A DNA stretch of 64,000 bases from Chloroflexota bacterium (GTDB taxonomy: Bacteria > Chloroflexota > Limnocylindria > P2-11E > CF-107). The notes under the pieces are model-generated. The model did no database searches. It was not told the origin of the DNA and saw only the letters and a list, made by a program, of their open reading frames with translations. The stretch is from NCBI GenBank assembly GCA_005881435.1, contig VBHP01000031.1, positions 15,242-79,241 on the forward strand. The letters are read 5' to 3'. Positions within the stretch are counted from its first letter, which is position 1. Every line of letters begins with the position of its first letter. Position numbers and translations under genes: made by a program. Shown in pieces: positions 1-18,376 of this stretch.

Positions 1-1
1 G

Positions 2-400
2 ATGATCAGCGGCGAGGTACCGCCGCCACCGGTCGCGCGGCTGGTCGGCTTCAAGCTCGAATCCATCGAGCCCGGGATCGCCGTCGTGAGTCTCGAAGCC
101 GACGAGCGACGCCACGCGAATCCGATGGGCACGTTGCACGGCGGCATCCTCTGCGACATCACCGACGCGGCCATGGGACTCGCGTTCGCTTCGACGCTCC
201 AGGACGACGAAAGCTTCACCACTCTGGAGCTGAAGATCAGCTTCCTGCGCGCCGTGCGGAACGGCAGGCTCGTCGCCAGCGGCAGGGTGCTGCATCGCGG
301 TAGGAACATCGGCTTCGTCGAGAGCGACGTGGTCGATGAGACCGGCGCGCTGATAGCGCGAGCGACGAGCACCTGCCTCCGGCTTGCGGCTAAGTCCTGA
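2..400 (+). CDS. PaaI/4HBT-family hotdog-fold acyl-CoA thioesterase (may be 5'-truncated by the window edge)
   Basis: ORF 2..400; NPMGTLHGG...D hotdog thioesterase signature; about 130 aa. Confidence 0.7.
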   Translation: MISGEVPPPPVARLVGFKLESIEPGIAVVSLEADERRHANPMGTLHGGILCDITDAAMGLAFASTLQDDESFTTLELKISFLRAVRNGRLVASGRVLHRGRNIGFVESDVVDETGALIARATSTCLRLAAKS

Positions 401-3353
401 TCTCCTCGCGCTCCAGCAGCCAGGTTCCGATCTCGTAGGGCTGGAGCCGCGCCTCGAGCCTGCCGTCCGGCAGCTGCTCCAACGGCGCGGCGGTGCGGAT
501 CACGTCCAGCCCGTTCGCGCCCAGATCGTCCTGGCCCTCGCGCAGATCCGTCGTGCGCAGGATGCGCATCGGGGTCATGAAGCGCGCGCGCGCCGAAGCC
601 TCGGCCGGTGACGGGTTAGCCAGGCGCAGCACCACAGTGTTCGGAGCGTGGCCCGGACGGAGCGCCGAGAGCTCGACAGCGCCGTCGGTCTCGAGCGCGA
701 GGCGCGTGCCGGGCCTGCCGCGCCCCAGGAGCGGCGGCTCGTGAAACTCGCGCGCGCTGCGGGCCGCCGAGGCGAGCGCGGACTCGGACGCGAGCGGGAT
801 CACCGCGTAGCGCATGCTCCAGCGCCCCTGCAATTGCGCCCCTGGCGTCTCCAGCTGCGGTCCGGCATGGCCGCGACGCTCCGGGAGATCGCCGCGCGAG
901 AGAAAGCCGACGCACCGCAGCAGGGTTAGCGCGATCTCCCTACCGTCGCCGAGCACCGCGTACTCCGGCAGGCCATCCGCGGTCACGACGACGCCTCCGA
1001 CGGCGTCCGAGATCGCGACGAAGTCCTGCACGTGCGCGGTGTCCGGCGGCTGCTCGGCCCACCCTGCCTTCGGCGCGATCCGGTTGGGGCGGCGCACCCA
1101 CGCGAATTGCTCGCCGGCGACATGGCTACGCGCGGCACGTCCGGTGGCGAAGATCGCGCGCAGGCGATGGTCGCGCGCACGGTTGTCGATCGTCGTCGTG
1201 ATCTCGACGCGATCGGCGTCGGCGTCCAATCGGATCACCGTCTCGATCCCGAGATCCACGATGCGCTCGTCGCGGGCGCGACGATCCGGGCGCAGCGCGG
1301 CCGGTACCGGAAGCGAGAGTCGCACCGCGACCTCGCCGCGCAGCGGGTGCACGCGCGTCTCACGCTCGCCCCCACGGCCGGCGCTACGGACCGGCGGTCC
1401 GGAATAGGAATAGGTGTATTCGTCGCCGCGGTCTCCCTCGTCGAGCAGCACGTTGTGCGGTCCGGTTCGGCCGCCCGGACCCTCTACATAAAAGGAGCCG
1501 TCCGGCGCGACCTCGACCCGAAGGCGGCCGTTGTCCAGAACGCCCTCCGCCGTCGAACGCACGTCGCTCTCCGGCGCCGCCGCGTCGAGCGCCGCCGCGC
1601 CCAGGCCGTCGAAGCGCGCGAACCGTGGACCCGTGCCGTCAGCGACGACGGCGGCGCGGGGAAAAGCCGTCGACGACCACGCCACCTCGCCGGCGCCGCC
1701 CTCGCCGAGCAGCCTCTCGCGCAGCGCGTCGCCCGTCGACCGCACCGTCGCGAATCGCGCACGCATGTCGATCTCGTGTACGGCGTCGATCGAGCAGCCA
1801 CAGATCGAGTCGTGGGGATGACATTGCAACAGGGTGCGCCACAGCGGCCGGAGCTCCTCGCGCGTCACGCTGCCGGAGAGCGCGGCGAACGGCTCGAGCC
1901 AGCGCAGCAGCAACCGCTCGCAGGCGGCGTTCTCCTGCTTGATCCACATCCGCGTCGAATTCACCGCGCGCAGGATGTGGCGATAGCGGCCCTCGATCAT
2001 CTCCCGCGAGTGCACCGGCAGGGTCATCGGCGGGTACGCCGCGACGGCGTCCTCGAGCGTGCCGATCGTGGTCGCCAGACGCGGGCGCAACTCCTTCGCC
2101 TGGCGCAGCGCCGGCAGGAGCTCGGGTGTGATCGGCGTGTGGTCGGTGCCGACCATCAGCAGCAGCACGTCGCTGTGCGCATAGGGCGTCTCGCGCGCCA
2201 GCAAGCGCGGCAGCTCGCGACGCAGCCGCCGCTGCATCTCCGGATCGGCCTCCTCGACGTGATGACTGTCGCGGATCAGCCACAGCGCGTTGTCGTAGTG
2301 ACCGACGAGGTGTAGCGCCAGCACGCGATCCCCCGACGGGGCTTGCCACTCGAACTCCGAGCCGAGCGCTTCGCCTTCATCGCCGAGACCGCGGGCGAAC
2401 ACGTACGAGCGGTAGCCGAAGCCGCGCAGGATCTGCGGCATCTGCGCCGGATGGCCGAAGGGATCGGCAACGTAGCCGACGCGCATGGCGCGGCCGTGTA
2501 ACGCCGCGAGCCGCAGGCCTTCCTCCATGTTCCGCAGCGTCGATTCGGCGTGCACCAGGATGAGATCGGAGAGCACGTACCAGGGTCCGATGAGCAGTTT
2601 CCCCGCGCGCACCAGCGCGTCGATCCGTGCGGACATGTCCGGCCGATCGCCGAGGTAATCCTCCAGCGCCACGGTTTGGCCGTCGAACGTGAACCGATCG
2701 ACGCCCCCGGGGCGCTCGAGCTCCGCGACGACGCCGTCGACGGCCGCAAGCAGGCGCGGACGGTATCCCGCGACCGTCTCGTACCACTCGCGATCCCAAT
2801 GCGTGTGCGGCACCACGATCGCGCGCCAGGGCACGCGCGTCCGCGCGAAACGAACGAGCTCGACGGCCAGGCGTCCGCAGACGAAACCGATGACCGCGCC
2901 GCCGAGAACGTCGCTCGGATAGTGCACGCCGAAATAGATGCGTTCAATCGCGACGAGTCCGCCGAACCCGTACAGCGGCAGCGACCACCACGGGCGGAAG
3001 GCGGTGAACGCGGCGACGGCCGCGAACGCCCCGGCGACGTCACCGGAGGGGAATGATTTCGTGGACACCGTCGGAATGAGGTACGGCCCGATCTCCGGGA
3101 ACGTCGTGAACGGGCGCGCGCGCGCGAACCCCGGCTTCAGCAGGAAATCGACCAAGACGGTGGCGATGACGAGCGCGGTGATGACGCTCGCGGCGACCCA
3201 CTGGCCGCGTCTGCCGTCGCGCAGCGCGAAGATGGCGAGCGCGATCCAGATCCAATCGAACAGCGTCAGCAGCCAGGTCAGGCCGAAGATGACATCGAAC
3301 GGCAGCGAGCGGAGCGCGATGATCTGGCGCAGGAGCGCTTCGTCGAGGCTCAT
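390..3353 (-). CDS. Fusion protein: N-terminal polytopic PAP2-family phosphatase-like domain + GH38 alpha-mannosidase (MngB / mannosylglycerate-hydrolase-like) domain
   Basis: Start taken at the internal ATG (MSLDEALL) that overlaps the DedA stop (ATGA). PAP2 motifs KPGFARARP, PSGD (variant of PSGH) and ERIYFGVHYPSD, with about 5 TM helices. GH38 signature VPHTHWDREWY and a long GH38 central/C-terminal region follow in the same ORF without a stop. Confidence 0.65.
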   Translation of the reverse strand: MSLDEALLRQIIALRSLPFDVIFGLTWLLTLFDWIWIALAIFALRDGRRGQWVAASVITALVIATVLVDFLLKPGFARARPFTTFPEIGPYLIPTVSTKSFPSGDVAGAFAAVAAFTAFRPWWSLPLYGFGGLVAIERIYFGVHYPSDVLGGAVIGFVCGRLAVELVRFARTRVPWRAIVVPHTHWDREWYETVAGYRPRLLAAVDGVVAELERPGGVDRFTFDGQTVALEDYLGDRPDMSARIDALVRAGKLLIGPWYVLSDLILVHAESTLRNMEEGLRLAALHGRAMRVGYVADPFGHPAQMPQILRGFGYRSYVFARGLGDEGEALGSEFEWQAPSGDRVLALHLVGHYDNALWLIRDSHHVEEADPEMQRRLRRELPRLLARETPYAHSDVLLLMVGTDHTPITPELLPALRQAKELRPRLATTIGTLEDAVAAYPPMTLPVHSREMIEGRYRHILRAVNSTRMWIKQENAACERLLLRWLEPFAALSGSVTREELRPLWRTLLQCHPHDSICGCSIDAVHEIDMRARFATVRSTGDALRERLLGEGGAGEVAWSSTAFPRAAVVADGTGPRFARFDGLGAAALDAAAPESDVRSTAEGVLDNGRLRVEVAPDGSFYVEGPGGRTGPHNVLLDEGDRGDEYTYSYSGPPVRSAGRGGERETRVHPLRGEVAVRLSLPVPAALRPDRRARDERIVDLGIETVIRLDADADRVEITTTIDNRARDHRLRAIFATGRAARSHVAGEQFAWVRRPNRIAPKAGWAEQPPDTAHVQDFVAISDAVGGVVVTADGLPEYAVLGDGREIALTLLRCVGFLSRGDLPERRGHAGPQLETPGAQLQGRWSMRYAVIPLASESALASAARSAREFHEPPLLGRGRPGTRLALETDGAVELSALRPGHAPNTVVLRLANPSPAEASARARFMTPMRILRTTDLREGQDDLGANGLDVIRTAAPLEQLPDGRLEARLQPYEIGTWLLEREEIRT

Positions 3354-3982
3354 CGGCGAACGTGACGCCAGACGAACAGAAGCACGAGGACGAGGATCGC
3401 CGCGGCGATGATGTAATCGAGCCCGCCGAGCGTCTCCCGCACAGCCCGCCAGTTGTCGCCGAGCGCCTTGCCCGCGTACACGAGCGCGATCGTCCACGGC
3501 ACCGCGCCCAGCAGCGAGAAGAGCACGAAGCGCCACAAGGGCATGCGCGCGATCCCGGCCGGGAGCGAAATGAACGTCCGCACCACCGGGAGCAGCCGGG
3601 TGAAGAAGACGGTCGCGTCGCCGTATCGCGCGAACCAGCGCTCGGCCAGCTCGATGTCATGGTGCGAGATCAAGATGTAGCGGCCATAGCGTTCGAGGAG
3701 CGGTCGGCCGCCGGCCGCACCCACGGCGTACGCGATGAGCGATCCGGTGGTGTTGCCTAGCACGCCCGCGACCACGGCGAGCCAGAACTCCCACGGCCCT
3801 CCGGTTAACGGCTCGGGGAGCTGTCGCGCCACGGCCCAGCCGGCAAGCGGGAGCACGAGCTCGCTTGGAAGCGGGATGCAGGCGCTCTCGATGGTCATCG
3901 CCAGCACCAGCCCGGCGTAGCCGATGCTCGTGTACAGCGACTCGAGAAATGGGATGACCAGCGTTTCCAGTGCTTGAAGCAC
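3350..3982 (-). CDS. DedA/VTT-family membrane protein
   Basis: Signature FTRLLPVVRTFISLPAGIARMPLWRFVLFSLLGAVPWT. Stop TGA overlaps the ATG of the downstream PAP2-GH38 gene. Start assigned to GTG 3982; the upstream in-frame extension overlaps the other strand, so the 5' end is uncertain. Confidence 0.8.
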   Translation of the reverse strand: MLQALETLVIPFLESLYTSIGYAGLVLAMTIESACIPLPSELVLPLAGWAVARQLPEPLTGGPWEFWLAVVAGVLGNTTGSLIAYAVGAAGGRPLLERYGRYILISHHDIELAERWFARYGDATVFFTRLLPVVRTFISLPAGIARMPLWRFVLFSLLGAVPWTIALVYAGKALGDNWRAVRETLGGLDYIIAAAILVLVLLFVWRHVRR

Positions 3983-4073
3983 GCGGTCATTCTGGGGCGC
4001 AACCGCAGCGGGTGCGTCGAGGCACGCCACCTGCACGTGCGTTCGGCGATATTTCGCCGATAGGAGTGATGAC

Positions 4074-4340
4074 ATGGATCTCGGGAGCATCATCGGTTTC
4101 ATCATCGTCGGCGCCATCGTCGGCGTGATCGCACGATTCCTGGTGCCTGGACCGGACCCGATGGGCTGGGTCGGCACGATCCTGTTGGGCATCGTCGGCT
4201 CGTTCGTCGGCGGTTTCTTGCTGAATCTGCTGTCCGGCAGCGCCACGATCTCGCCGGCGGGATGGATCGGCTCGATCGTCGGCGCCATCATCGTGTTGCT
4301 CATCTGGCGTCAGATGGGTGGCCGCCGCGCCGCGACGTAG
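4074..4340 (+). CDS. GlsB/YeaQ/YmgE-family transglycosylase-associated stress membrane protein
   Basis: 88 aa with glycine-zipper TM helices (GAIVGVIARFL...GIVGSFVGGFLLNLL); AGGAGTG Shine-Dalgarno 6 nt upstream. Confidence 0.8.
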   Translation: MDLGSIIGFIIVGAIVGVIARFLVPGPDPMGWVGTILLGIVGSFVGGFLLNLLSGSATISPAGWIGSIVGAIIVLLIWRQMGGRRAAT

Positions 4341-4368
4341 CCGGGTGCGCGGCGGAGAGCCTTAAGCG

Positions 4369-6075
4369 ATGACACAAGCCGAGACACGCCCGCGAGCGGC
4401 GCGCGACAGCACGTTGCAGCAGCGCGGGCGTGAGCTCGGCCGCCTGGCCGAGCGCCGGCTCGCACTCGCGCCACGGGATGCGGCCGCCGCCGAGCGGGCG
4501 CGCCGTCTACGCGATCACGCGCTCGGCTACATCGTGCCCCGTGCCACGGACCTCGACGCTCCGCTGCTGATCCTGTTGCTCGGTCCAACCGGCGCGGGCA
4601 AATCGTCGATCCTGAACACCATCGCCGCGGGTCCGGTAAGCGCCACGGGCGTGGTCCGGCCGACCACGCGCGACGCGATCCTGTACGCCACGGCGGCCGA
4701 CGCCGAGCGGCTACTCGAGAGCGGGCAGCTCGGACGGCTTTCGCGCGGCAGCGTCGGACGCGTGCTGGCACCCGGCGACCGGACCGGCGTCGCGATCGTC
4801 GACGCGCCCGATATCGACTCCGTCGAACGTGCGAACCGCGAGCTCGCGGACGCGTTGATCGAGTCCGCCGACCTCTGCGTGTTCGTCACCACGGCGACGC
4901 GGTATGCGGATCTCGTCCCGTTCGAGGTCCTCCGCCGCGTTCGCGAGCGCGGTCTTCCGCTGGTCGTCGTGATCAACCGGCTGCCGCGCGACGAGCACGA
5001 CCGCGAGGTCGTGGTGGCCGACGCGTCGAGACTCCTGGCGCAGGCGGGCGTCCCGACGGAGCGAATGACCATCGCCCTGGTCGGTGAAGGCGAGTTGGAC
5101 CCGACTGTCGATGGTCTCTCGCGCGAGGCGCTTCGACCGGTACTCGAGCGCATCGACCAGCTCGCCGGCGATCGGGACGAGCGGGCCGCGCTGGCGGCAT
5201 CGACGCTCGAGGCCGCGATCCGCGGTCTGGCGCCATTGGCCCACTCCGTGGCCGACGACCTGGAACATGACGCGCTGGACACGGAGACGCTCCGGCGGAT
5301 CGCTGCCACGACGTACGTCGAGGAGCTGGACGACCTCCTGCGTGCATTACGCGAAGGCGGCGTGCTTCGCGAGGAGATTCTCCGTCAGTGGCACGACTTC
5401 GTGGGCGCCGATCAGATCACGCGGCTGTTCGCCACCGGCTTCGGTCGCTTGCGCGGGATGCTGCTGGTCGCGCTGCGCGGACGTCCGAACTCCCCGGCGC
5501 CGCAGGTCGAGGAGGAGGCCGTCACGGTGCTGGCCGCTCAGGTCGGTCGGTACGCCAACGAGGCCGCGCGCCGGACCGCCGGACGTTGGTCCGAACGCGA
5601 GGATGGCGCCGGACTCGTCGCCACCGAGCCAGGGCTGTGGAGCGCGTCGCCGGATCTCGGGAACGCGGTCCGCGGGGACCTGGACGAATGGCTGCGCTCG
5701 ATCGTCGACGATGTCCGCGCCGCGGGAGACCGTAAACGCACGACGGCACAGATCGCGGCGCTCGGCGTCAACGCGGTCGGCGTCGCCGTCATGCTCGCGG
5801 TCTTCGCGCACACCGCGGGTCTGACCGGCGCCGAGCTCGGCATCGCCGGCGGGACCGCGTTCGTGAACCAGAAGCTCTTAGAGACCATCTTCGGCGAGCG
5901 CGTCATGGAGGAGCTGATCGAGCGTGCCCGCTCACGCCTCGACGCGCTGCTGACCGCGCTCTTCGCCCACGAGCGCGATCGCTTCGATCGCGTCGCCGCC
6001 GCTCCGCAGGACCTGCGCGAGATCGCGTCGTCATTGCGGCGCACCGTCGACGCCTTCGCCGCGGAACGGGCATGA
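4369..6075 (+). CDS. Dynamin-like GTPase family protein (first of a pair)
   Basis: P-loop LLGPTGAGKSSILN, G3 VDAPDID, G4-like NRLP, long helical C-terminal region. ATGA overlap with the next, paralogous GTPase. Confidence 0.6.
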   Translation: MTQAETRPRAARDSTLQQRGRELGRLAERRLALAPRDAAAAERARRLRDHALGYIVPRATDLDAPLLILLLGPTGAGKSSILNTIAAGPVSATGVVRPTTRDAILYATAADAERLLESGQLGRLSRGSVGRVLAPGDRTGVAIVDAPDIDSVERANRELADALIESADLCVFVTTATRYADLVPFEVLRRVRERGLPLVVVINRLPRDEHDREVVVADASRLLAQAGVPTERMTIALVGEGELDPTVDGLSREALRPVLERIDQLAGDRDERAALAASTLEAAIRGLAPLAHSVADDLEHDALDTETLRRIAATTYVEELDDLLRALREGGVLREEILRQWHDFVGADQITRLFATGFGRLRGMLLVALRGRPNSPAPQVEEEAVTVLAAQVGRYANEAARRTAGRWSEREDGAGLVATEPGLWSASPDLGNAVRGDLDEWLRSIVDDVRAAGDRKRTTAQIAALGVNAVGVAVMLAVFAHTAGLTGAELGIAGGTAFVNQKLLETIFGERVMEELIERARSRLDALLTALFAHERDRFDRVAAAPQDLREIASSLRRTVDAFAAERA

Positions 6076-7652
6076 ACGTCGCTCGCTGCCTGGAGCGGCT
6101 CGACGAGGCGGTCGACGCAACGCGAGCGCTGGGATTGCCGGTCGACGACGCGACGGCGGTCTCCGAGCGCGCGCGCACGCGGCTCGGGCTGGGCGGGGAC
6201 GCCTACGTCGTCGCGCTCATCGGCGGCACCGGTGTCGGAAAGTCGTCGCTGCTGAACGCGCTCGCAGGCACCGAGGTCGCCGCGGCCGGCGCGAAGCGCC
6301 CGACGACGGATCAGGCCGTGGCCTGGGTCCCGCGACAGCGGCGCGGCGAGCTCACCTCGGTGCTGGAGTGGCTCGGTGTCGATCGCGTGAGCGAACACGC
6401 CGGCAACGGCATGGCGTCGGTCGCGGTGCTCGACCTCCCAGACCTCGACTCGGTCGCGCGCGAGCACCGCGCCCGGGTCGACCAGCTGCTGCCGCGCATC
6501 GACGCGGTCGCGTGGGTCGTCGATCCCGAGAAGTACAAGGACCTCGTGCTCCACGACACCTACCTGCGGGCATGGTCGCGACGGCTGCCACATCAGGTGG
6601 TCGTGCTGAATCGGACCGACCTCCTCCCCGACGGCTCGGCCACGCGCGTACGCGAGGACCTGCGCGCCGAGCTCGACGACGCCGGCTTGCGCGAGGTGCC
6701 GGTGCTGACGACGCAGGCCCGCCGCGGCGGATCCGGCGTCGAAGAGCTCCGTCGCTGGCTCACCGCTGAAAGCGACGACAAGACCGTGGTGGCCGAGCGC
6801 CTTGCCGCTGACATCCGTGAGGCGATCGGCGACCTCGCCCGCCGCGCCGCCGTCACGGACGGCCTCGCGCCGCCGCTGGTGACGGCCGAGCGACGCGAAG
6901 CCGCCCTGCGCGACATTGCCGGCGCGGCGATCGCGCTCGTCGATCCGCGCGGGTTGGAGGCGCAGGCGGTCGCGGCGACGCGCCTCAGCGCTCGACGCCG
7001 CGGGACCGGTCCGCTCGGTGTGCTCACCAGCGCGCTCTACCGCTGGAGCGGCCGCGCACGAGCGTCGGCAAATCCGGCGACGTATCTGCGCCACTGGCGC
7101 GAGCGCGGGAGCCTCGCGCCCGCGTCGGAGCCCATGCGCGCGCTTGTCGCGTCAGCATTGCCCCCATTGCCTTCGACGCTGCGCCCGGCGGTCGCCGCGC
7201 TGGCCGAGCCGGCGAACATCGAACGCGGCCTGGCGGCCGCGATCGATCGAGCCATCGACGACGAGGCGCGCGACCTGCGCGTACCGGCGAGCGTGCTGTG
7301 GTCCGCGATCGGCGCCGGCCAGTTCGTCGTCGCGGCACTGCTGGTGTTCGCCGCGATCTGGTTCGCATCGCTGTTCGTGCTCGACCATCCGGCGGTCGGA
7401 AGCGTGGCGCTGCCGCTGCTCGGGCCGGTGCCGTCGCCGGTCCTCTTTCTCGCCGGGGTCCTGCTGGCCGGATATGTCCTGACGCTGCTGCTCCGGCTGC
7501 ACGCGGGATGGGTGGCGCGACGCTGGGCGCGCCGCGTGGTGTCGCGGATACGATCCGGCGTCGAGTCGCGCATCCGCGGCTCGGTCTTCCTGCCGCTTGA
7601 CGCGATCGAGGCCGCGCGCTCGCGCCTCGCCGCGGCGATGAAGGACTGCTAG
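6072..7652 (+). CDS. Dynamin-like GTPase family protein (second of a pair; membrane-anchoring hydrophobic hairpin near the C-terminus)
   Basis: P-loop LIGGTGVGKSSLLN, DLPDLD, NRTD (NKxD-like); two TM segments (FVVAALLVFAAIWFASLFVL ... VLFLAGVLLAGYVLTLLL). Confidence 0.6.
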   Translation: MNVARCLERLDEAVDATRALGLPVDDATAVSERARTRLGLGGDAYVVALIGGTGVGKSSLLNALAGTEVAAAGAKRPTTDQAVAWVPRQRRGELTSVLEWLGVDRVSEHAGNGMASVAVLDLPDLDSVAREHRARVDQLLPRIDAVAWVVDPEKYKDLVLHDTYLRAWSRRLPHQVVVLNRTDLLPDGSATRVREDLRAELDDAGLREVPVLTTQARRGGSGVEELRRWLTAESDDKTVVAERLAADIREAIGDLARRAAVTDGLAPPLVTAERREAALRDIAGAAIALVDPRGLEAQAVAATRLSARRRGTGPLGVLTSALYRWSGRARASANPATYLRHWRERGSLAPASEPMRALVASALPPLPSTLRPAVAALAEPANIERGLAAAIDRAIDDEARDLRVPASVLWSAIGAGQFVVAALLVFAAIWFASLFVLDHPAVGSVALPLLGPVPSPVLFLAGVLLAGYVLTLLLRLHAGWVARRWARRVVSRIRSGVESRIRGSVFLPLDAIEAARSRLAAAMKDC

Positions 7653-8575
7653 CGGCTGAAGGCGGTTCGCAGCGCTCGCCCGATGTCGTCGATCGCGCGA
7701 TCGGCGCTGTCGACCTCGCCGGCCATAGGGATGAATCCGTGCACCACGCCCTCATAGCGCCGGCACTCGACCGCTACGCCACTGTCGCGTAGACGTCTGG
7801 CGTAGGCCTCGCCTTCGTCACGCAGCGGATCGAACTCCGCGATCACGATCACCGCCGGGGGGACACGGCTCAGATCGTTCGCCCGCAGCGGCGAGGCATA
7901 TGGATTCGCGCCGTCGGCGACGTCGCGCAGGTAATGGCTCCAGAACCATTGCATCTCGTTCCGCGTGAGCCGGTAGCCCTCGGCGTTCTCGGCGTACGAC
8001 GGGGTATCGAAGGCGTAGTTCAGCACCGGCACCAGCAGGACCTGGAACACGAGCCGCGGACCGCCACGGTCGCGCGCGGCCAGCGCCATGGCCGCAGCCA
8101 GGTTGCCACCGGCGCTCTCGCCGCCCACGGCGATGCGACTGGGGTCGACGTCGAGAGACCGAGCATTCTCGGCGAGCCACTTCGTCACCGCGTAGGACGC
8201 TTCGAGCGCGACGGGAAACGGATGTTCCGGCGCGAGTGGGTAGTCGACCGATACGACCACGCAGCGCGCCGCGTTGGCCAAACGCCGGCACAGCGCATCG
8301 GGAGCATCGAGGTCGCCGAGCACCCATCCGCCGCCGTGCAGATAGACGAGCGCCGGCAGATCAGTCCCGCCCGGTGCGTAGATGCGGACGCCAACGTCCC
8401 CCGCCGCAGTCCGTAGGGTGCGCTCGAAGACTCGAGCAACCGCTGCGCTGGGAGGATGGAGCAGCGCACCACGCTCACGCGAGGCGCGTCTTGCTTCGTC
8501 CGGGCTCATGCGGTCGCGGGCGATCTCCGGCAGCCGTTCGAGCACCCGTTCCACCTGCGGATCGAGGCGTGCCAC
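7649..8575 (-). CDS. Alpha/beta-hydrolase esterase/lipase (HSL family)
   Basis: HGGGW oxyanion motif, GESAGG nucleophile elbow, C-terminal DPLRD/HGF. Confidence 0.8.
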   Translation of the reverse strand: MARLDPQVERVLERLPEIARDRMSPDEARRASRERGALLHPPSAAVARVFERTLRTAAGDVGVRIYAPGGTDLPALVYLHGGGWVLGDLDAPDALCRRLANAARCVVVSVDYPLAPEHPFPVALEASYAVTKWLAENARSLDVDPSRIAVGGESAGGNLAAAMALAARDRGGPRLVFQVLLVPVLNYAFDTPSYAENAEGYRLTRNEMQWFWSHYLRDVADGANPYASPLRANDLSRVPPAVIVIAEFDPLRDEGEAYARRLRDSGVAVECRRYEGVVHGFIPMAGEVDSADRAIDDIGRALRTAFSR

Positions 8576-8617: not shown

Positions 8618-9838
8618 ATGCCGACCGAAACCGATCGCACGCTCGCCGAGGCGCTCTCGGGTATCGCGCGCGCGGACGTGATCGTCGGGATCCCGTCGTA
8701 CAACAACGCCAAGACCATCGCGCACGTCGTCGACATGGCGCGTCAGGGATTGCGCCACTCGTTCCCCGCGCTGACCGGCGTCGTCGTCAACTCCGACGGG
8801 GGCAGCGAGGACGGCACGCGCGATGTCGTCACGGAACAGGACACGCCCGAGCTGCGCGTCGTCAGCGGCCGCTACACCGGGCCAAGCGGAAAGGGCAGCG
8901 CCCTGCGTGCCGTGTTCGAAGCGGTGAGGCAGCTCGGCGCTCGCGCCGCCTGCGTCGTCGACAGCGACCTCCGCAGCATCGCCCCGGAGTGGATCGAGCG
9001 GCTGCTACGTCCCGGCATCGATGGTCGCGCCGGGTACGTCACGCCGCTGTACATCCGTCACAAGCACGACGGCACCATCACCAACAACGTCATCTATCCG
9101 GTGGTGCGAGCGCTGTACGGCAAGCGCGTGCGACAGCCGATCGGCGGCGACTTCGGGTTCAGCGCCGACATGGCGCGGCGCTGGCTCGCCGAGGACGTCT
9201 GGGAGACGGACGTGGCCCGCTTCGGCATCGACGTGTTCATGACCACGACGGCCCTCGCGTCCGGCGCGACGGTGATGCAGGCCGCGCTCGGCGCGAAGCT
9301 GCACGATCCCAAGGATCCGGCGCGACACCTCGCGCCGATGTTCACGCAGGTCAGTAGCGCCCTGGTCGACCGGCTCCGGGCGCACCGCGCGTTCTGGTCC
9401 CGAGCGGTCGGATCCGAGCCGCTCGAGACCGAAGGACAAGCGCCGGCGATCGAGCCCGACGATGTTCGCGTCGACCTCGCCGGGCTCGATGCCGCGTTCC
9501 GCCTTGCCAACACGCCCGATCGCGAGCGCTGGTCGGAGATCATCTGCGCCGACGAGCTCGCGACGTTCACGGCGGCGGCCGAAGCCGAGGCGCCGTCGGG
9601 ATGGGACACGGAGCGCGCCTGGGCGCGGATCGTCTACGACGTTCTCGGTTCGTCGATGCGCGACGGCGCGCAGACCGCCGCGAACGTGCGGGCGCTGCTG
9701 CCGCTGTACTTCGGTCGCATCGCGATGCACGTCCGCGCCGCCTCGGGGATGCCGAGCAGCGCCGCGGAGGCGCTCGTGGAGCGTCAGGCGGAAGCGTTCG
9801 AGGCGGAGAAGCCGCATCTGCTGAAGTCGGCGCGATGA
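8618..9838 (+). CDS. GT-A glycosyltransferase resembling GT78 mannosylglycerate synthase / MggS (glycosyl-glycerate synthase-like)
   Basis: Start at the internal ATG 8618, because the upstream part overlaps the esterase. IPSYNN, DGGSEDGT, GKG, and the block CVVDSDLRSIAPEWI, which resembles HFYDADITSFGPDWI of Rhodothermus MGS as recalled from memory. Confidence 0.5.
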   Translation: MPTETDRTLAEALSGIARADVIVGIPSYNNAKTIAHVVDMARQGLRHSFPALTGVVVNSDGGSEDGTRDVVTEQDTPELRVVSGRYTGPSGKGSALRAVFEAVRQLGARAACVVDSDLRSIAPEWIERLLRPGIDGRAGYVTPLYIRHKHDGTITNNVIYPVVRALYGKRVRQPIGGDFGFSADMARRWLAEDVWETDVARFGIDVFMTTTALASGATVMQAALGAKLHDPKDPARHLAPMFTQVSSALVDRLRAHRAFWSRAVGSEPLETEGQAPAIEPDDVRVDLAGLDAAFRLANTPDRERWSEIICADELATFTAAAEAEAPSGWDTERAWARIVYDVLGSSMRDGAQTAANVRALLPLYFGRIAMHVRAASGMPSSAAEALVERQAEAFEAEKPHLLKSAR

Positions 9839-11943
9839 CGGTTTCGCTGAAAGAGGGCGAGGTCGTCCTGATCACCCCGGACGACGGCTCGATCCCGGCG
9901 GACGATCCCGGCGCACACGGCCTCTACTACCACGACATGCGCTTCGTCTCGGTGTTCGAGCTGCGGATCAACGGCGAGCCACCGATGCTGCTGTCAGCGA
10001 ACGGCGACGAGAACTACGTCGCGACCTTCCAGCTCATCAACGACCAGGTCGTGCTCGCCGACGGCTCGAGGCTCCAGCCCCAGTCACTGTCGATCCGCCG
10101 CACGCGGTTCGTTGCCGACGGCTGGCGCGAGCGCATCGGGCTGCTGAACTGTTCGGCGCAGACGGTCACGCTGGAGATCGCGCTGATCGTCGACGCCGAT
10201 TTCCAGGATCTGTTCTCCATCCGCGGATACCACGGCATGGACCTGCCGCCGGTCACGCGAGAGATGCGCGAGGGTGGCGTGAACCTGTGGGCGCGCGGGG
10301 CCGACGGGATCGTCCGCACCACCCGCGTCCGTACCATCCCCGATCCCACCGCCGTCGTCGGACGCGAGCTGCGGTTCACTCGCACGCTCGGGCCGCAGGA
10401 GGTCTTCGCCATGGAGGTGCGGCTCATACCGTACGAAGACGACAAGCCGCCGACCGCGGGACTACGCGACTTCGACGAGGCCATCGAGGCGGTCCGCGAG
10501 AGCTACAAGGGCTTCTTGAAGGACAGCACCCGCGTCGCGACCTCGCGTGAGCGGCTCGACCGCGAGCTGCTCGAGCGCTCGGCCCGCGATGTGCGAGCGC
10601 TGCTCGACTTCGAGCCGACCGGGCCGTATCCGACCGCGGGCATCCCGTGGTACGCGACGCCGTTCGGCCGCGACGGGATCATCGCCGGGCTGCAGACGTT
10701 GTGCTTCAACCCCGACGTGGCCGTCGGCACGTTGCGGCTGCTGGCGCGCTACCAAGGTCGAAAGGTCGATCCCTACACCGAGGAGGAGCCGGGAAAGATC
10801 CTCCACGAGCTGCGGCGCGGCGAGCTGGCACGGCTCGGGCGGGTGCCGCATCGCCCTTACTACGGGACCGTCGACGCGACGCCGCTCTTCGTCTCGCTGC
10901 TGGTCGAGACGGTCCGCTGGCTTGGCGACTGGACGCTGTACCGCGAGCTGCTGCCAAGCGCCGATGCGGCCCTGCGCTGGTGCGACACATTCGGCGACAT
11001 CGACGACGACGGCTTCGTGGAGTACGCCAGCAGCGGTTCCAGCGTCGAGCTCCGCAACAAGGGTTGGAAGGACTCGCAGTCGTCGTTGTCATACCGCGAC
11101 GGCTCATACGCCCAGCTGCCCGCCGCGCTCGTCGAAGTCCAAGCGTACGTGTACCACGCCAAGCGCGGCATGGCCGAGCTGGCCGCGCTCGACGGCGACG
11201 CCGAGCGCGCGGCGCGCCTGCACCGCGAGGCCGAAACGCTACGCGAGCACTTCGAAGACGTCTTCTGGATGCCTGCCGAGCGCTGCTACGCGCAGGCGCT
11301 CGACGCGTCGAAGCGACAGATCGAGGCCGTGACGAGCAATGCCGGTCACGCGCTGTGGGCCGGCATAGCCTCGCCCGAACGCGGCGCGCTCGTCGCAGCG
11401 CGGCTGATGGAGCGCGACATGTTCAGCGGCTGGGGCGTGCGCACGCTCTCATCGGGCTATCCGACGTACAACCCCATGAGCTACCACAACGGCTCGGTGT
11501 GGCCACATGACAACTCCATGATCGCCGCGGGTCTGGCGGCATACGGCGAGCACGATCGCGCGAATCAGATCATCAGCGCCATGGTCGACGCCGGCCTCCG
11601 CTTCCCGAACGCGCGGCTGCCGGAGCTCTTCTGCGGGTTCTTCCGCGACCAGCGATTCTCCAACCGTCCGGCCGACTACCTCGTGTCGTGCATCCCGCAA
11701 GCGTGGTCGGCCGCGGCGCCGCTGCTGTTCCTTCAGACCATGCTCGGCCTGCGGCCGGAGCTCGCGACGCGCGAGCTTCACGTCGATCCGGTCCTGCCGC
11801 AATGGCTCGAGCGTGTCGACGTCGTCGGCCTTCGCGCTCTCGGCCGCCGCTATACGTTTCGCGTCCGACGGACGCGCCGCGGTGTCCGCGTCAGCGGAGA
11901 CCTTCGCCGGCCACTGGGCACGCGCGTTGCAGCTACCGCCTGA
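9835..11943 (+). CDS. Glycogen-debranching-enzyme-like (GDE_N_bact + amylo-alpha-1,6-glucosidase / six-hairpin GH) glycoside hydrolase
   Basis: ATGA overlap with the upstream GT; GDE-type motifs PWYATPFGRDGII and GWKDSQ; (alpha/alpha)6-type C-terminal region; 702 aa. Confidence 0.65.
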   Translation: MTVSLKEGEVVLITPDDGSIPADDPGAHGLYYHDMRFVSVFELRINGEPPMLLSANGDENYVATFQLINDQVVLADGSRLQPQSLSIRRTRFVADGWRERIGLLNCSAQTVTLEIALIVDADFQDLFSIRGYHGMDLPPVTREMREGGVNLWARGADGIVRTTRVRTIPDPTAVVGRELRFTRTLGPQEVFAMEVRLIPYEDDKPPTAGLRDFDEAIEAVRESYKGFLKDSTRVATSRERLDRELLERSARDVRALLDFEPTGPYPTAGIPWYATPFGRDGIIAGLQTLCFNPDVAVGTLRLLARYQGRKVDPYTEEEPGKILHELRRGELARLGRVPHRPYYGTVDATPLFVSLLVETVRWLGDWTLYRELLPSADAALRWCDTFGDIDDDGFVEYASSGSSVELRNKGWKDSQSSLSYRDGSYAQLPAALVEVQAYVYHAKRGMAELAALDGDAERAARLHREAETLREHFEDVFWMPAERCYAQALDASKRQIEAVTSNAGHALWAGIASPERGALVAARLMERDMFSGWGVRTLSSGYPTYNPMSYHNGSVWPHDNSMIAAGLAAYGEHDRANQIISAMVDAGLRFPNARLPELFCGFFRDQRFSNRPADYLVSCIPQAWSAAAPLLFLQTMLGLRPELATRELHVDPVLPQWLERVDVVGLRALGRRYTFRVRRTRRGVRVSGDLRRPLGTRVAATA

Positions 11944-12042
11944 GCACGCTCGCCTTCTCGCTCGGTGTCCGTTCGGAGCGTGAGTCCCTCGGCCGCAAAT
12001 GGTGCTGAAATAAGGTCGTTCGGAGGTCGGAGCAGGAGAAGC

Positions 12043-13254
12043 ATGCCGCGCGTACTGCTGCTGCACTACACCTTCCCCGGCATCGTCGGCGGTGTCGAGA
12101 TGGTGCTCGCGCGTCATGCGGCCGCGCTGCGCGATGCCGGCGCCGACGTCGTCATCGCCGCCGCGGGCGTGCGCTCGGCGCGCATCCCGGAGCTGGACTC
12201 GCGCCATCCCATGGTCGAACGCGTCTTCCACGAGCTAGCCGCGGGCGAGGTCAGTGAACGACTCGAGCATCTGCGCGAACGGATCCGCGAACGGCTGGCG
12301 CCGGAGATCCTCCGCAGCGAGCGCGTGGTCGCGCACAACGTCCTCACGCTGCATAAGAATCCCGCGCTCGCGCTGGCGCTCCGCGACCTCGCACGCGGCA
12401 TGACGCCGGGCAAGCTCGTGGTGTGGGTGCACGATCTGGCGTGGACCGACCGGCGCTATGCGCGGCAGCGCCACGACGGGGAACCCTGGGACACGTTCGC
12501 TCGTCCGATCCCTGGCGCCCGCTACGTGGCCGTGTCGGAGGCGCGTCGAGACGAGACCGCGCAGCTGCTCGGCATCCCCGACGATGCCATCGCGATCGTG
12601 CCGAACGGCATCGATCTCGCCGAGGTGCTCCGACTTTCGTCGACGACACGCGCACTCGTCGACCGGCTCGGCCTCGGCGGCGCGACGGTGCTGCTGCTGC
12701 CGGCACGACTGACCCGGCGAAAGCGCGTCGAGGTGGCCATCGACGCCGCGGCGGCGCTGTCGCGTCGTGGCCGCCGCATCCGCTTGCTCGTGACCGGTGG
12801 TCCCGGACCGCACAACGCGGACAACGTCCGGTATCTCGAGGAGCTGCGTGGCCGCGTGACGGCCTCGCGGGGTGCGGCGGTGCTCCTGCACGACGCCGTG
12901 CCCGGACCGCTGTCGCATCGCGCGGTGATGGAGCTGCTGTCGCTGGCCGATGCCCTGGTCTTCCCCTCCGAGCAGGAGGGCTTCGGCATCCCGTTGCTGG
13001 AAGCCGCGGCGCTGCGGGTGCCGATCATCGCAAGCGACATCCCGGCGCATCGCGCGCTCGTCGGCGAGCAGGCGACCTACGTGGCGCCGGATGCCGACGC
13101 GGATCAGCTCGCCGCAGCCATCGAGCACGCGCTCGAAAGCGACGCCGCTGCCCGCCGCCGGGCTGTGGCGCGGGAGCACGAGTGGTCCCGCATCCTGGCC
13201 GATCGGGTCGTGCCGCTGGTCCTCGGCGAACGCTCGGGCACGCGGAGCGCGTGA
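12043..13254 (+). CDS. GT4-family glycosyltransferase (MggA-like candidate)
   Basis: Internal ATG 12043 preceded by AGGAGAAG Shine-Dalgarno. GT4 C-terminal EX7E-type region PSEQEGFGIPLLEAAALRVPIIASD. Confidence 0.75.
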   Translation: MPRVLLLHYTFPGIVGGVEMVLARHAAALRDAGADVVIAAAGVRSARIPELDSRHPMVERVFHELAAGEVSERLEHLRERIRERLAPEILRSERVVAHNVLTLHKNPALALALRDLARGMTPGKLVVWVHDLAWTDRRYARQRHDGEPWDTFARPIPGARYVAVSEARRDETAQLLGIPDDAIAIVPNGIDLAEVLRLSSTTRALVDRLGLGGATVLLLPARLTRRKRVEVAIDAAAALSRRGRRIRLLVTGGPGPHNADNVRYLEELRGRVTASRGAAVLLHDAVPGPLSHRAVMELLSLADALVFPSEQEGFGIPLLEAAALRVPIIASDIPAHRALVGEQATYVAPDADADQLAAAIEHALESDAAARRRAVAREHEWSRILADRVVPLVLGERSGTRSA

Positions 13255-15065
13255 TGCGCGTGCTCGTCGCCATCGGCGACATCGATCGGGACCGCGGCCT
13301 CGTCGACGTGGCGCGGGCGCTCGGCGACGGCGGCGATCTGGTCCTCGCCTCGGTCGTGGAGATACCCGGATCACGATCGCTGGCCTCGGCGCAGCCGCGC
13401 GCCCGAACGCGCCGGCTGCAGCTGCAATCGTTCACCAAACGCGCCGGCATCACCGCGGGCGTGGTGGTGAAGGTCGCGCGCAAGACGCTCGACGCCATCG
13501 CCGAGGCGGTCGAGCACGAGCAGGCCAAGCTTCTGATCATCGGTTGGCCGAGCGCATCACCGAGCGAGGCGCTCAACGAGTTCCTGTCGCATCCACCCTG
13601 CGACGTCGCCGTCGTGGTCGGCGATGTCGGCGGCGCGCGCCGGATCCTCGTGCCGGTGCGCGGCGGACGCTACGCGCAGCTCGCGGTGGCGATCGCCTCG
13701 GCCATCGCCGCGCATAACGACGGCAACGTCACGCTGCTGCACGCGACCGAGCCCGGACGCGATGCCCCACGAACGCGGAGCGCGCTGTATGACGTGCTCG
13801 GCGCGGCGCAGCACTCGCGCATCGGACAGCTTGTCAGCGCCGTCGGTCCGGCCGCGGAAGTGATCCGCTCACAGCTGCCGGACCACGACCTCGTGGTGCT
13901 CGGTGCAACCGCGCGCGACGGCGTGAGCTCCTCGTTCGGACCCATCGCCGAGGCGCTGGCGGCGTCGGGGACGCCGCTCCTGGTGGTGCGCACCCGCACG
14001 CCGGTCGCCTCGCGCATCTTTTCGGCGCGCTCGACGCTGCCGGCTGACCGACGCGAACGCAGCGGTTACATCTCCGAGCTGGTGGACAAGTGGTTCGCCG
14101 AGAACACCTTCGTCTCCTCCGAGTTCGCCGACCTCGAGCGCCTCGTCGATCTCAAGCGCCGCCAGGGCGTGACCATTTCGGTGGGACTGCCGGCATTGAA
14201 CGAAGAGGAGACGATCGGCGACGTGGTGTACACGATGCGCAAGCGGCTGATGGGCCGCTATCAACTGGTCGACGAGATCGTCGTCATCGACTCCGGCTCG
14301 AGCGACCGGACCCGCGAGATCGCGAAGGGCGAAGGCGTGCCCGTCTACGTGCATCAGGAGATCGTGCCCGAACTGGGCGCGAACTCCGGCAAGGGCGAGG
14401 CGCTGTGGAAGAGCCTGTTCGTGCTGCGCGGCGACATCGTCTGTTGGGTCGATACGGACATCCGCAACATCCACCCCAAGTTCGTGTACGGCATCGTCGG
14501 CCCACTTCTGGTCCATCCGCGGCTGCAGTATGTGAAGGCGTTCTATCAGCGACCGCTCAACGTCGGAGAGACGATGCAGGCAACCGGCGGCGGACGAGTG
14601 ACGGAGCTGACCGCGCGGCCGATCCTCAATCTCTTTTTTCCGGAGCTCTCCGGCATGATCCAGCCGCTCTCCGGCGAATACGGTGGGCGGCGCGCGCTGC
14701 TCGAGCAACTGCCGTTCTTCACCGGTTACGGCGTCGAGACCGGCCTGCTCATCGACGTCCTGCAGCGCGGCGGACTCGACGCCATCGCGCAAACGGACAT
14801 GAAGCAGCGGATCCATCGCAACCAGTCGCTGCTGGCGCTGTCGAAGATGTCGTTCGCCCTGCTCCAAGTGGTGCTGAAGCGCGTCGGCGAATCGACCGGT
14901 CGAGCCATCTGGGAAGAAGCGAACTCGTCGCTGAAGCTCATCCGCGGCGACCGCGGTCGCTATCGGCTCGACGTCCAGGAGATCGTCGAGGGCGAGCGGC
15001 CGCCGCTGGTCAGCGTGCCGCAATATCGCATTCGCCGGAATTCCTCGTTGGTCGGGGTCGGTTAG
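13255..15065 (+). CDS. gpgS: Tandem universal-stress-protein (UspA) domains fused to glucosyl-3-phosphoglycerate synthase (GpgS, GT81)
   Basis: ATG immediately follows the GT4 stop. The N-terminal 280 aa carry two USP-like alpha/beta repeats. The C-terminal half matches GpgS motifs: TISVGLPALNEEETI, VIDSGSSDRT, GKGEALWKSL, ATGGGRVTEL, QPLSGEY, IAQTDMKQRIHRNQ. Confidence 0.75.
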
Positions 15066-15153: not shown

Positions 15154-16326
15154 ATGGCCGGGGAGCGGATCCGAGTCCTGATCGTCGACGATCACGACGC
15201 CACGGTGCAGACCGTGACGACGATGCTTCAACTCGACCCCGAGTTCGAAGTGATCGGGGTCGCCGGCGACGGGAAGACCGGCGTCGACCAAGTCGCGGCG
15301 CTGCACCCTGACGTCGTGCTGATGGACATCAACATGCCGGTGATGGACGGCATCAGCGCGACCGAGATCATCGTCCAGCAGCACCCCGGCACCGCGGTGG
15401 TGATGCTGTCGGCGCAGACCGATCACGAATACCTCCGGCGCTCGATGAACGTCGGCGCCAGCTACTTCCTGGCGAAGCCGGTCTCGAGCGATGAGATCTA
15501 TAACGCCATCCGGCGCGCGAACGAGGTCAACCGACTCCGTTCGCAGCGCTACGCCGCTCCGCCCCCGGAGCCCGAGCCGACCGCGCCAGCCGGTACGGCG
15601 ATCGCGTTCTTCTCCCCGAGCGGCGGCGTCGGGCGCACGACGATCGTGACCAACCTCGCCGTCGCGCTGCAGAAGATCGCCCCGACCGCGATCGTCGACC
15701 TGAGCCTCCCGTTCGGCGACATCGCGGTGCTGCTGAACGCGCCGCCGAAAGCGAAGTCCATCGGCGACCTCGTCGGCAAGTTCGCCACGCTTCGCGGGGC
15801 CGACGTCGACCAGGTGCTGTTCACGCATCGCTCTGGCGTTCGCGCGCTGCTCGCGCCGCCCTCGCCGGAGATGGAGGAGCGCATCGGACCCGACGATGTG
15901 CGCAAGCTGCTCACCGTGATCCGGCAACAGTTCCGCTTCGTGATCGTGGACACCTGGGCCTCGTACGGCGAGACGATGCTCGCCGTCCTCGAGAGCGCCG
16001 ACCGCATCGTCCTTCCCTTCACCCTGGAGCTGACGAGCGTCAAGAACGCACGGGTCTTCATCGAGGTAATGCGCAAGGTCGGGCTGGATCCCAAGGTCTC
16101 GCTGCTGGTGAATCGCGTGGATCAGCCCAACGGGCTGAAGCTATCCGAGATCGAAGGCGGGCTCGGCCGCAAGTCGTCGTACCAGCTATCGACGGACGAG
16201 GCGTCGCTGCGTCTGGCCATGAACCGCGGGCTGCCCGTCGTCGACACGCACCCGGACAGCAAGCTCGCCAGAGAGTTCGCCGCCGTCGCCAAGGCAGTCG
16301 CAGCCGAGCCGGCCCTCACGCGTTAG
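15154..16326 (+). CDS. Response-regulator receiver domain fused to a CpaE/TadZ-like (MinD/ParA-fold) ATPase domain
   Basis: Receiver with DD, phospho-acceptor D (LMDINMP) and K (LAKP). Deviant Walker A FFSPSGGVGRTT, typical of TadZ/CpaE. Confidence 0.65.
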   Translation: MAGERIRVLIVDDHDATVQTVTTMLQLDPEFEVIGVAGDGKTGVDQVAALHPDVVLMDINMPVMDGISATEIIVQQHPGTAVVMLSAQTDHEYLRRSMNVGASYFLAKPVSSDEIYNAIRRANEVNRLRSQRYAAPPPEPEPTAPAGTAIAFFSPSGGVGRTTIVTNLAVALQKIAPTAIVDLSLPFGDIAVLLNAPPKAKSIGDLVGKFATLRGADVDQVLFTHRSGVRALLAPPSPEMEERIGPDDVRKLLTVIRQQFRFVIVDTWASYGETMLAVLESADRIVLPFTLELTSVKNARVFIEVMRKVGLDPKVSLLVNRVDQPNGLKLSEIEGGLGRKSSYQLSTDEASLRLAMNRGLPVVDTHPDSKLAREFAAVAKAVAAEPALTR

Positions 16327-18294: not shown

Positions 18295-18376
18295 GCGACC
18301 CACGGCTGATTCCGTCTGGTGTGGCGTGCGAGCGCCGCGTGATGCCGTGACGTTCCAGCGACTCTGCGCGATCGCG

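Follow-up and report, generated by a model that had tools for sequence, protein, structure and literature searches.

What is the role of a protein that carries a membrane phosphatase at one end and an alpha-mannosidase at the other? This question is raised by a 64,000-nucleotide stretch of Chloroflexota contig VBHP01000031.1 (hereafter the window), in which we have identified on the reverse strand, at 390..3353, an open reading frame (ORF) of 987 amino acids plus stop codon that joins a PAP2 phosphatase domain to a glycoside hydrolase family 38 (GH38) alpha-mannosidase, as seen from Pfam matches, homologues and an AlphaFold2 (AF2) model. Its immediate upstream neighbour encodes a DedA membrane protein. 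It is only of late that DedA proteins have been recognised as polyprenyl-phosphate flippases, and the first description of enzymes that release the carrier from stalled intermediates dates from 2025. The reading that we favour, with a probability of about 0.4, is that two independent activities may be combined here: PAP2 and DedA would recycle polyprenyl phosphate, while the tethered GH38 would hydrolyse a soluble alpha-mannoside.

The fusion itself is real. The ORF runs in a single frame without a break from PAP2 (aa 1-172) into GH38 (aa 176-987), and its AF2 model reaches a mean predicted local distance difference test (pLDDT) score of 86.3 and a predicted template-modelling score of 0.87. 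The original prediction had given it 988 amino acids; the ORF stands, yet that length counts the stop codon. The same combination of PF01569 and PF01074, at about 988 amino acids, is present in 118 of the 120 best database clusters, and the fused clusters stem from NCBI, JGI, ENA and Logan assemblies and, where named, from Candidatus Limnocylindria (Chloroflexota). A frameshift or chimera is ruled out by the single ORF and by the recurrence of the architecture in more than 100 clusters from independent assemblies, so that the objection that the two domains might lie in separate frames through a sequencing error does not hold. A longer ORF of 1048 amino acids, starting from GTG 3536, was rejected as well, since homologues align from its Met62 and the upstream part is dedA coding region.

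The fusion family forms one tight clade. Among one-genome-per-species contigs, full-length matches fell in Limnocylindria or unclassified Chloroflexota, plus five fusion-type loci with other taxon labels (L001, L015, L022, L024 and L092), which are probably due to mis-binning; unfused relatives at 27-42% identity are spread in these contigs over many phyla. In a library clustered at 50% identity, only two clusters were fused, and all other GH38 relatives (at most 45% identity) matched from about query residue 175 and from about residue 1-20 of their own sequence. Because of this distribution, we conclude that the fusion arose once. The architecture is firmly confined to one class, Ca. Limnocylindria, which is uncultured and known here only from metagenome-assembled genomes, many of them soil-derived (SMAG). 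Literature searches on PAP2 with GH38, on the PSGD variant described below, on SepP and on GH38 with transmembrane and Chloroflexi returned nothing relevant in the library searched, in agreement with the original statement that no such fusion had been described. PAP2-GH38 is thus a new domain architecture made from known families, and the databases carry these proteins under generic names, NCBI using “phosphatase PAP2 family protein”.

The upstream gene (3350..3982, reverse strand) encodes a COG0586/UptA-like DedA protein of 210 amino acids, from a GTG start at 3982 to a TGA stop at 3352..3350. We take this GTG as the start because its orthologues, from about 35 loci, can be aligned starting at residue 1, and because a putative -10-like box (CAGAAT, 3989..3994, reverse strand) lies 6 nt upstream of it. 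Nearly every related locus (L002-L086) has a similar box (GATGAT, TACGAT or CATCAT) at a distance of 6-8 nt from the start codon of dedA, and this conserved hexamer suggests that the dedA mRNA may be leaderless. A sigma-70 consensus scan found nothing at the CAGAAT box, and a promoter and terminator scan of 1..4400 was uninformative. The two genes meet in cgccgATGAgcctc, where the ATG of the fusion ORF (3353..3351) and the TGA of dedA (3352..3350) share a 4-nt ATGA overlap (3350..3353, reverse strand) that is read directly in the sequence, as the original prediction had stated. Of 34 non-redundant related loci, 29 show such an overlap of stop and start codons (4 nt in 9, 1 nt in 20), and in 3 more the genes are separated by a gap of 0-1 nt. 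We therefore conclude firmly that dedA and the fusion ORF form one operon and are co-translated.

The joint between the two halves is equally well kept. It covers aa 166-176 (2826..2858, reverse strand) and consists, by alignment and AF2, of the end of helix 6, the residues RFARTRVPW and the first strand of GH38, so that only some 4 residues separate the last PAP2 helix from GH38. The strand, at 176-184, follows directly on helix 6 in the model and carries the HxHxD metal motif; pLDDT at the junction is 94-97. The stretch from position 166 to 180 has a constant length of 15 residues in 115 members of the family, W176 being invariant and R177 conserved.

In the PAP2 fold, the three motifs share one face and the C-terminus emerges at the opposite one, so that GH38 must lie across the membrane from the PAP2 pocket. 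In the 115 members, the net charge of the short loops on the GH38 side is +4.0 between helices 2 and 3 and +3.9 behind helix 6; for the loops bearing the PAP2 motifs it is +1.0, with three catalytic residues among those counted, and -0.3. According to the positive-inside rule, GH38 would be cytoplasmic and the PAP2 pocket would face outward, in the canonical orientation of PAP2 enzymes, whose active sites lie outside the cytoplasm. The reverse arrangement, with GH38 outside and the PAP2 site inside, is ruled out by the charge distribution. Model and charges together argue strongly for a two-faced bifunctional membrane protein whose PAP2 site faces out of the cell and whose GH38 is cytoplasmic. 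The topology and AlphaFold check suggested with the original prediction could thus place each active site, PAP2 outward and GH38 inward, but not on a shared side. Two sites on opposite faces would have no shared substrate and could not handle the same molecule simultaneously.

The PAP2 domain (aa 1-172; 2838..3353, reverse strand) was delimited from Pfam PF01569, AF2, a hydropathy profile and PDB 6ebu. It has six membrane helices, which AF2 places at 17-30, 34-46, 48-76, 104-119, 121-140 and 146-171, and the Pfam match (aa 57-168) has an E value of 2.6e-19 and 69.7 bits against a cut-off of 27.2. In a 55-sequence alignment, 53 canonical fusion members carry the PAP2 motifs. Motif C1, K73-x6-R80-P81 (KPGFARARP; 3111..3137, reverse strand), and motif C3, R138-x5-H144-x3-D148 (RIYFGVHYPSD; 2910..2942, reverse strand), are kept in 53/53 of them, as are K73, R80, P102, S103, G104, D105, R138, H144 and D148 individually. 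Motif C2 reads P102-S-G-D105 (3039..3050, reverse strand) instead of the canonical PSGH: Pro, Ser and Gly are kept and Asp105 replaces the general-acid His. The original prediction had pointed out this PSGD, and it recurs in 118/118 PAP2-bearing homologues and in 53/53 of the canonical members. Moreover, the residue before the C3 Arg is Glu instead of Ser.

The change from His to Asp removes the usual general acid, which would matter less for pyrophosphates than for alkyl phosphomonoesters, because the phosphate of a pyrophosphate is itself a good leaving group. This would fit a lipid-pyrophosphatase role and speak against a sugar-phosphate one. The best named relatives of the domain are undecaprenyl-diphosphatases (SepP-type, 49.7 bits against 250; PRK11837-type, 36.3 against 229; NCBIfam, both below cut-off). 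Its best solved relative, LpxE of Aquifex aeolicus (PDB 6ebu, E 6e-12), has the same size and six helices, but carries a canonical PSGH and no C-terminal extension. A weak match to 7f17, a soluble class A acid phosphatase of the same superfamily, was also found.

The DedA partner is UptA-like. It matches Pfam VTT_dom (PF09335; E 1e-25, 91 bits) and, best within NCBIfam, the undecaprenyl phosphate transporter UptA, with a score of 176.3 bits that is below the 250-bit equivalog cut-off. Besides the VTT/DedA domain, it has two features reported for the flippase subfamily COG0586, a conserved pair of acidic residues and the R-x5-R pair of re-entrant helices, and fusions of the type DedA::PAP2 are already known from that subfamily; E32, E41, R129 and R135 are invariant in 38 orthologues. 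The arrangement resembles UptA and BcrC of Bacillus subtilis and the DedA::PAP2 fusion PA4011 of Pseudomonas aeruginosa, in which a COG0586-type DedA is likewise genetically tied to a PAP2 protein, and it keeps the paired arginines R129/R135, the acidic residues and a PAP2 domain nearest to undecaprenyl-diphosphatases. That DedA and PAP2 proteins are linked to polyprenyl-phosphate recycling, as had been proposed for this locus, is thus a documented partnership. The locus differs from these systems in that PAP2 is fused to GH38 and DedA is a separate, coupled gene, C2 reads PSGD and the scores are below equivalog cut-offs.

The second half (aa 176-987; 393..2828, reverse strand; Pfam, Foldseek and MngB alignment) is a complete GH38 enzyme, as originally proposed from its HTHWDREWY. 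Glyco_hydro_38N (aa 179-421; E 8e-29, 101.2 bits against 25), Alpha-mann_mid (aa 463-547; 39.2 against 31.1) and Glyco_hydro_38C (aa 607-814; 37.8 against 25) are all above cut-off, and the C2 beta-sandwich profile, with 19.4 bits, is below its cut-off of 22. On the reverse strand, the metal-binding motif H183-T-H185-W-D187 (2793..2807) is invariant in 55/55 sequences. D297 in DPFGH (2463..2465), the predicted nucleophile, is conserved in 54/55 and the following P298, F299, G300 and H301 in 55/55, so that loss of the catalytic Asp, raised beforehand as a possible objection, does not apply. D404 in G-x-D-H (2142..2144), a predicted acid/base from its position in the motif, and H514-D515 in HPHDSICGCS (1809..1814), the predicted region of the fourth metal ligand, are present in 55/55, and the same is true of H183, H185, D187, H301, D404, H405, H512, H514 and D515 taken singly. 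From published knowledge of GH38, we take the HxHxD to bind metal, as H90/D92 of Golgi mannosidase II, and D297 to be the nucleophile, as D204 of dGMII.

Foldseek aligned the GH38 fold with the enzymes of Enterococcus faecalis (5kbp) and Streptococcus pyogenes (2wyh) at a template-modelling score (TM) of 0.76-0.78 over about 940 columns. These cytoplasmic enzymes share the five-domain fold (TM 0.77) and the catalytic motifs, but they are only 23-24% identical, lack a membrane domain and use mannosides of host glycans as substrates. Another parallel is Escherichia coli MngB, the 2-O-(6-phospho-alpha-mannosyl)-D-glycerate hydrolase, which is collinear with the GH38 part from MngB residue 6 (27% identity from end to end, across 833 aligned columns; E 4e-83) and provides the best NCBIfam match (mannosylglycerate hydrolase MngB, NF007331; 378 bits, below the 1138-bit equivalog cut-off). 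There, too, a GH38 linked to mannosylglycerate shares an operon with a membrane protein, the transporter MngA. Unlike the fusion, MngB is soluble and unfused, and its partner is a phosphotransferase system permease that phosphorylates the substrate. The loci of unfused GH38 relatives (L033-L079, L087) have no DedA, PAP2, GpgS, GH176 or GT2′ neighbours (the last three are described below) and do not help on substrate.

The question whether the two halves depend on each other is addressed by two close relatives of 917 amino acids, P0007 (L085 9368..12121) and P0009 (L086 10001..12754), of which the GH38 part is 72% and 69% identical, respectively. Their N-terminus is a four-helix remnant of about 105 amino acids without C1, C2 and C3, yet the junction is unchanged, DedA still overlaps, and the neighbours, including the GpgS operon, have stayed as in the other loci. 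PAP2 chemistry is thus dispensable in that sublineage, and the fact that these relatives lost C1-C3 and still keep anchor, DedA, GH38 and operon speaks for independence of the two halves. Even if they are independent, the fusion is still the first membrane-tethered bacterial GH38.

The same relatives could also be taken as a sign that the fusion has no function of its own. Perhaps an ancestral dedA-pap2-gh38 arrangement lost a stop codon, the product being tolerated since the PAP2 C-terminus and GH38 are both cytoplasmic, and PAP2 is now drifting towards a mere anchor. The single origin in one class, a GH38 that begins exactly where unfused homologues begin and the decay of the PAP2 motifs in two sublineages with no other change would all agree with such a history. 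We consider it quite unlikely, however, as the PAP2 catalytic residues are invariant over about 50% sequence divergence, the junction is invariant in length with W176 and R177 conserved, and even the decayed forms have not discarded the anchor, of which four helices remain, with an unaltered junction.

In the favoured reading of two independent activities, the PAP2 pocket (K73, R80, S103, G104, D105, R138, H144 and D148) would remove the terminal phosphate of polyprenyl pyrophosphate at the outer face, and the UptA-like DedA would then return polyprenyl phosphate to the inner leaflet. GH38, held rigidly against the membrane in the cytoplasm, would hydrolyse a soluble alpha-mannoside, for which mannosylglycerate or mannosyl-glucosyl-glycerate from the adjoining operon would be candidates, and the GH176 of that operon may then remove alpha-1,2-glucose. 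Architecture, conservation, coupling, fold, residues and synteny are directly shown by the data; we infer the topology strongly, and both substrates and the independence of the activities we infer as well.

Several points weigh against this reading. A rigid membrane weld with invariant junction, and a coupling to DedA that persists despite PAP2 decay, are unexplained for a solute hydrolase and hint at a membrane-linked GH38 substrate. The PSGD-type PAP2 is a predicted phosphatase of presumed catalytic competence; the scores of DedA, PAP2 and GH38 are all below NCBIfam equivalog cut-offs; and a mannoside is only a candidate product of GT2′ and GT4, the glycosyltransferases of the operon. To our knowledge, the hydrolases of organisms that make mannosylglycerate or glucosylglycerate belong to GH63. 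MngB acts on the 6-phospho form of its substrate. Finally, gene order is generally conserved in the class: the downstream genes, which encode a secreted protein, MalK, DUF4388, ROK and GAPDH, have retention rates between 31/31 and 21/22 loci, so conservation of neighbours is weak evidence of shared function. It cannot count as strong evidence, since unrelated flanking genes are equally conserved.

The hint at a membrane-linked substrate leads to the main alternative, carrier-lipid salvage, where GH38 would trim polyprenyl-linked or other lipid-linked alpha-mannosides of stalled intermediates at the cytoplasmic face, with PAP2 and DedA recycling the carrier and all three contributing to the homeostasis of polyprenyl phosphate. 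Here, three activities would be joined by fusion and translational coupling, two of them a known recycling pair, the rigid and length-invariant junction would serve to hold GH38 at the membrane, and the persistence of anchor and DedA after PAP2 decay would be accounted for. B. subtilis offers a parallel: bcrC, uptA, ushA and upsH form one regulon, and the hydrolases UshA and UpsH, co-regulated with PAP2 (BcrC) and DedA (UptA), both free undecaprenyl phosphate on the cytoplasmic face. Unlike GH38, these two are unfused, have alpha/beta hydrolase and metallophosphoesterase folds and cleave at the phosphate. GH38 cleaves alpha-mannosidic and not sugar-phosphate bonds, so that alone it could not free the carrier, and its unfused relatives are ordinary cytoplasmic enzymes. 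No phosphoglycosyl transferase, Wzx or other flippase, polymerase or GT-C was seen near the locus in the window or in the related loci. Polyprenyl-phosphate-mannose made by inverting GT2 enzymes is, moreover, beta-linked. We thus regard salvage as doubtful. For similar reasons, the proposal in the original prediction of a single membrane machine acting on one glycan holds only in part: it has a precedent in the B. subtilis hydrolases that free undecaprenyl phosphate, but the sites on opposite faces, the lack of polyprenyl-glycan genes at the locus and the PAP2-less sisters do not support it.

A wider formulation, which we also consider rather unlikely, would make the fusion protein and DedA one vectorial unit across the membrane. 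In one version, the PSGD-type PAP2 would dephosphorylate the carrier outside, DedA would flip it and the docked GH38 would clear alpha-mannosylated lipid-linked intermediates; if true, no glycoside hydrolase before it would have been an integral part of the polyprenyl-phosphate cycle. The other version has a single phosphorylated mannoside processed step by step, by the phosphatase outside, by DedA as transporter and by the glycosidase inside, and this would give DedA a role beyond lipid flipping.

The candidate substrates of the favoured reading come from an operon on the forward strand at 8618..15065, which dedA directly and divergently adjoins in 36/37 related loci. Where the flank is long enough to tell, its four genes are found with the fusion in 36/37, 31/32, 28/29 and 25/25 loci. 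The first, here called GT2′ (8618..9838, forward strand; 406 aa), was assigned as a glycosyltransferase similar to mannosylglycerate synthase (MGS) or GgS from AF2, structure search and synteny. Its AF2 model (pLDDT 90.9) has as best PDB fold, over the full length, the MGS of Rhodothermus marinus (TM 0.72-0.77), while glucosyl-3-phosphoglycerate synthase (GpgS) covers only the GT-A half. By sequence, GT2′ is a distant GpgS paralogue: its profile matches only GpgS and MpgS in the PDB and not MGS, and a single-sequence search against the PDB gave no match. Some orthologues match PF21969 MGS_GT with 23.5 bits, below the 27-bit cut-off, and JGI names some of them “glucosylglycerate synthase”. R147 and T155 are invariant and presumably sit where MGS binds the glycerate carboxylate.

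The GT2′ stop overlaps (ATGA) the start of a GH176 gene (9835..11943, forward strand), made up of GDE_N_bis and an (alpha/alpha)6 barrel (PDB 7vma, E 4e-100), a family that includes a characterised alpha-1,2-glucosidase. It is followed by a retaining GT4 glycosyltransferase (11965..13254, forward strand; Pfam) with weak NCBIfam matches, including MggS at 56 bits, and by a GTGA overlap with a 604-aa Usp::GpgS protein (13251..15065, forward strand; Pfam Usp and GT2). With 379.7 bits against a cut-off of 262, the latter qualifies as a glucosyl-3-phosphoglycerate synthase (NF010496). The Usp::GpgS fusion is conserved in all related loci.

Although the operon lies within 5 kb, both flanks of the dedA-fusion pair, which itself has stayed together, are rearranged in the lineage of the window. 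Between dedA and GT2′, a lineage-specific 4.6-kb insertion (4074..8575) encodes, by Pfam, a Transgly_assoc protein, two dynamin-like GTPases with overlapping stop and start codons and an Abhydrolase_3 esterase. It is absent from this position in 36/37 other loci. L001, the closest relative, is the sole other locus without GT2′ beside dedA, and has the GTPase pair and Transgly_assoc upstream of dedA.

The presence of a MGS-fold glycosyltransferase, a true GpgS and an adjoining GT4 recalls the MGS of R. marinus and the GpgS-MggA-MggB systems of Petrotoga and Rhodopirellula, and GT4 beside GpgS recalls the gpgS-mggA adjacency of the mannosylglucosylglycerate (MGG) pathway. Unlike those pathways, the locus has no pathway phosphatase, carries GH176 and GH38 instead of GH63 and a GpgS with Usp, and its product is only predicted. 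Of the originally suggested tie to an osmolyte locus, the hydrolase half gains from the MGS-like glycosyltransferase, GH176, GT4 and GpgS and from the collinearity with MngB. The phosphatase half finds no support, since an outward PAP2 cannot dephosphorylate a cytoplasmic phosphoglycerate glycoside.

Could PAP2 nonetheless be the missing glycosyl-3-phosphoglycerate phosphatase? This would take either an inverted topology or a DedA that exports the phosphorylated intermediate for dephosphorylation outside, the latter being similar to the glucose-6-phosphatase system. A GpgS is present, neither the annotated ORFs of the window nor the related loci revealed a phosphatase of the HAD or histidine type, PAP2 is the only phosphatase domain of the cluster, and the superfamily includes the soluble class A acid phosphatases that the weak 7f17 match brings up. 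GpgP genes are often unlinked to gpgS, however, and the 917-aa variants keep the GpgS operon without PAP2 motifs. The topology places the PAP2 site outside and GpgS in the cytoplasm, and with Asp for His the enzyme should lose more of its activity on alkyl phosphomonoesters than on pyrophosphates. We know of no DedA that moves soluble sugar phosphates, and hold this possibility to be highly improbable.

The GT4 gene bears on a further alternative, turnover of membrane glycolipids. GH38 would strip alpha-mannose from inner-leaflet lipids such as mannosyl-diacylglycerol or others like phosphatidylinositol mannosides, perhaps made by GT4, and PAP2 and DedA would act on the phospholipid or carrier side. 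Its juxtamembrane placement would suit GH38 for such a task, the PDB matches of GT4 include the lipid-acting PimA and PimB-type mannosyltransferases along with a sucrose-phosphate-synthase-like protein, and PAP2 enzymes act on many lipid phosphates, trifunctional LpxE being an example. Yet these GT4 matches are generic (at most 31 bits), no gene of the locus makes a lipid acceptor, and the neighbouring MGS-like enzyme and GpgS use soluble acceptors; turnover of glycolipids is therefore improbable in our view.

The surroundings offered some further observations. In 31/31 other loci, the next gene downstream of the fusion encodes a small protein of 166-216 aa that is predicted to be secreted and matches no Pfam family, for instance at 12964..13614 in L080, 13071..13598 in L083, 12225..12749 in L085 and about 9320..9673 in L001. 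It is absent in the window, where a convergent 4HBT thioesterase gene (2..400) overlaps the fusion end instead. The near-identical contig L088 shows, just past the left edge of the window, a second GH176 (16693..18768), an ABC sugar transporter and two GH13 genes. In that record, GH176 and GT4 are called split or truncated (236..2655), probably from assembly frameshifts, and both are intact in the window. Directly after the GpgS operon follows a response-regulator receiver fused to a ParA/MinD-like ATPase (15154..16326, forward strand). Farther away, we noted in this bacterial genome a gene that strongly matches the haem peroxidase family of animals (54826..56739, reverse strand; 348 bits), and a LytR-CpsA-Psr family protein (41925..43376, forward strand). 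Enzymes of the LytR-CpsA-Psr family transfer polyprenyl-pyrophosphate-linked polymers to the cell wall, and carrier-dependent wall polymers therefore probably exist in this organism.

As for its meaning, the invariant PSGD constitutes a natural experiment on the general-acid His of PAP2 enzymes. The fusion also marks a previously unnoticed glycosyl-glycerate locus in Limnocylindria, with its MGS-like glycosyltransferase, GH176, GT4 and Usp::GpgS. Finally, it can be seen as a “Rosetta stone” in which a DedA/PAP2 pair and an alpha-mannosidase of the cytoplasm are physically connected, so that a link between carrier recycling and mannoside metabolism becomes directly testable. If that link is true, a glycosidase would be added to the carrier cycle.

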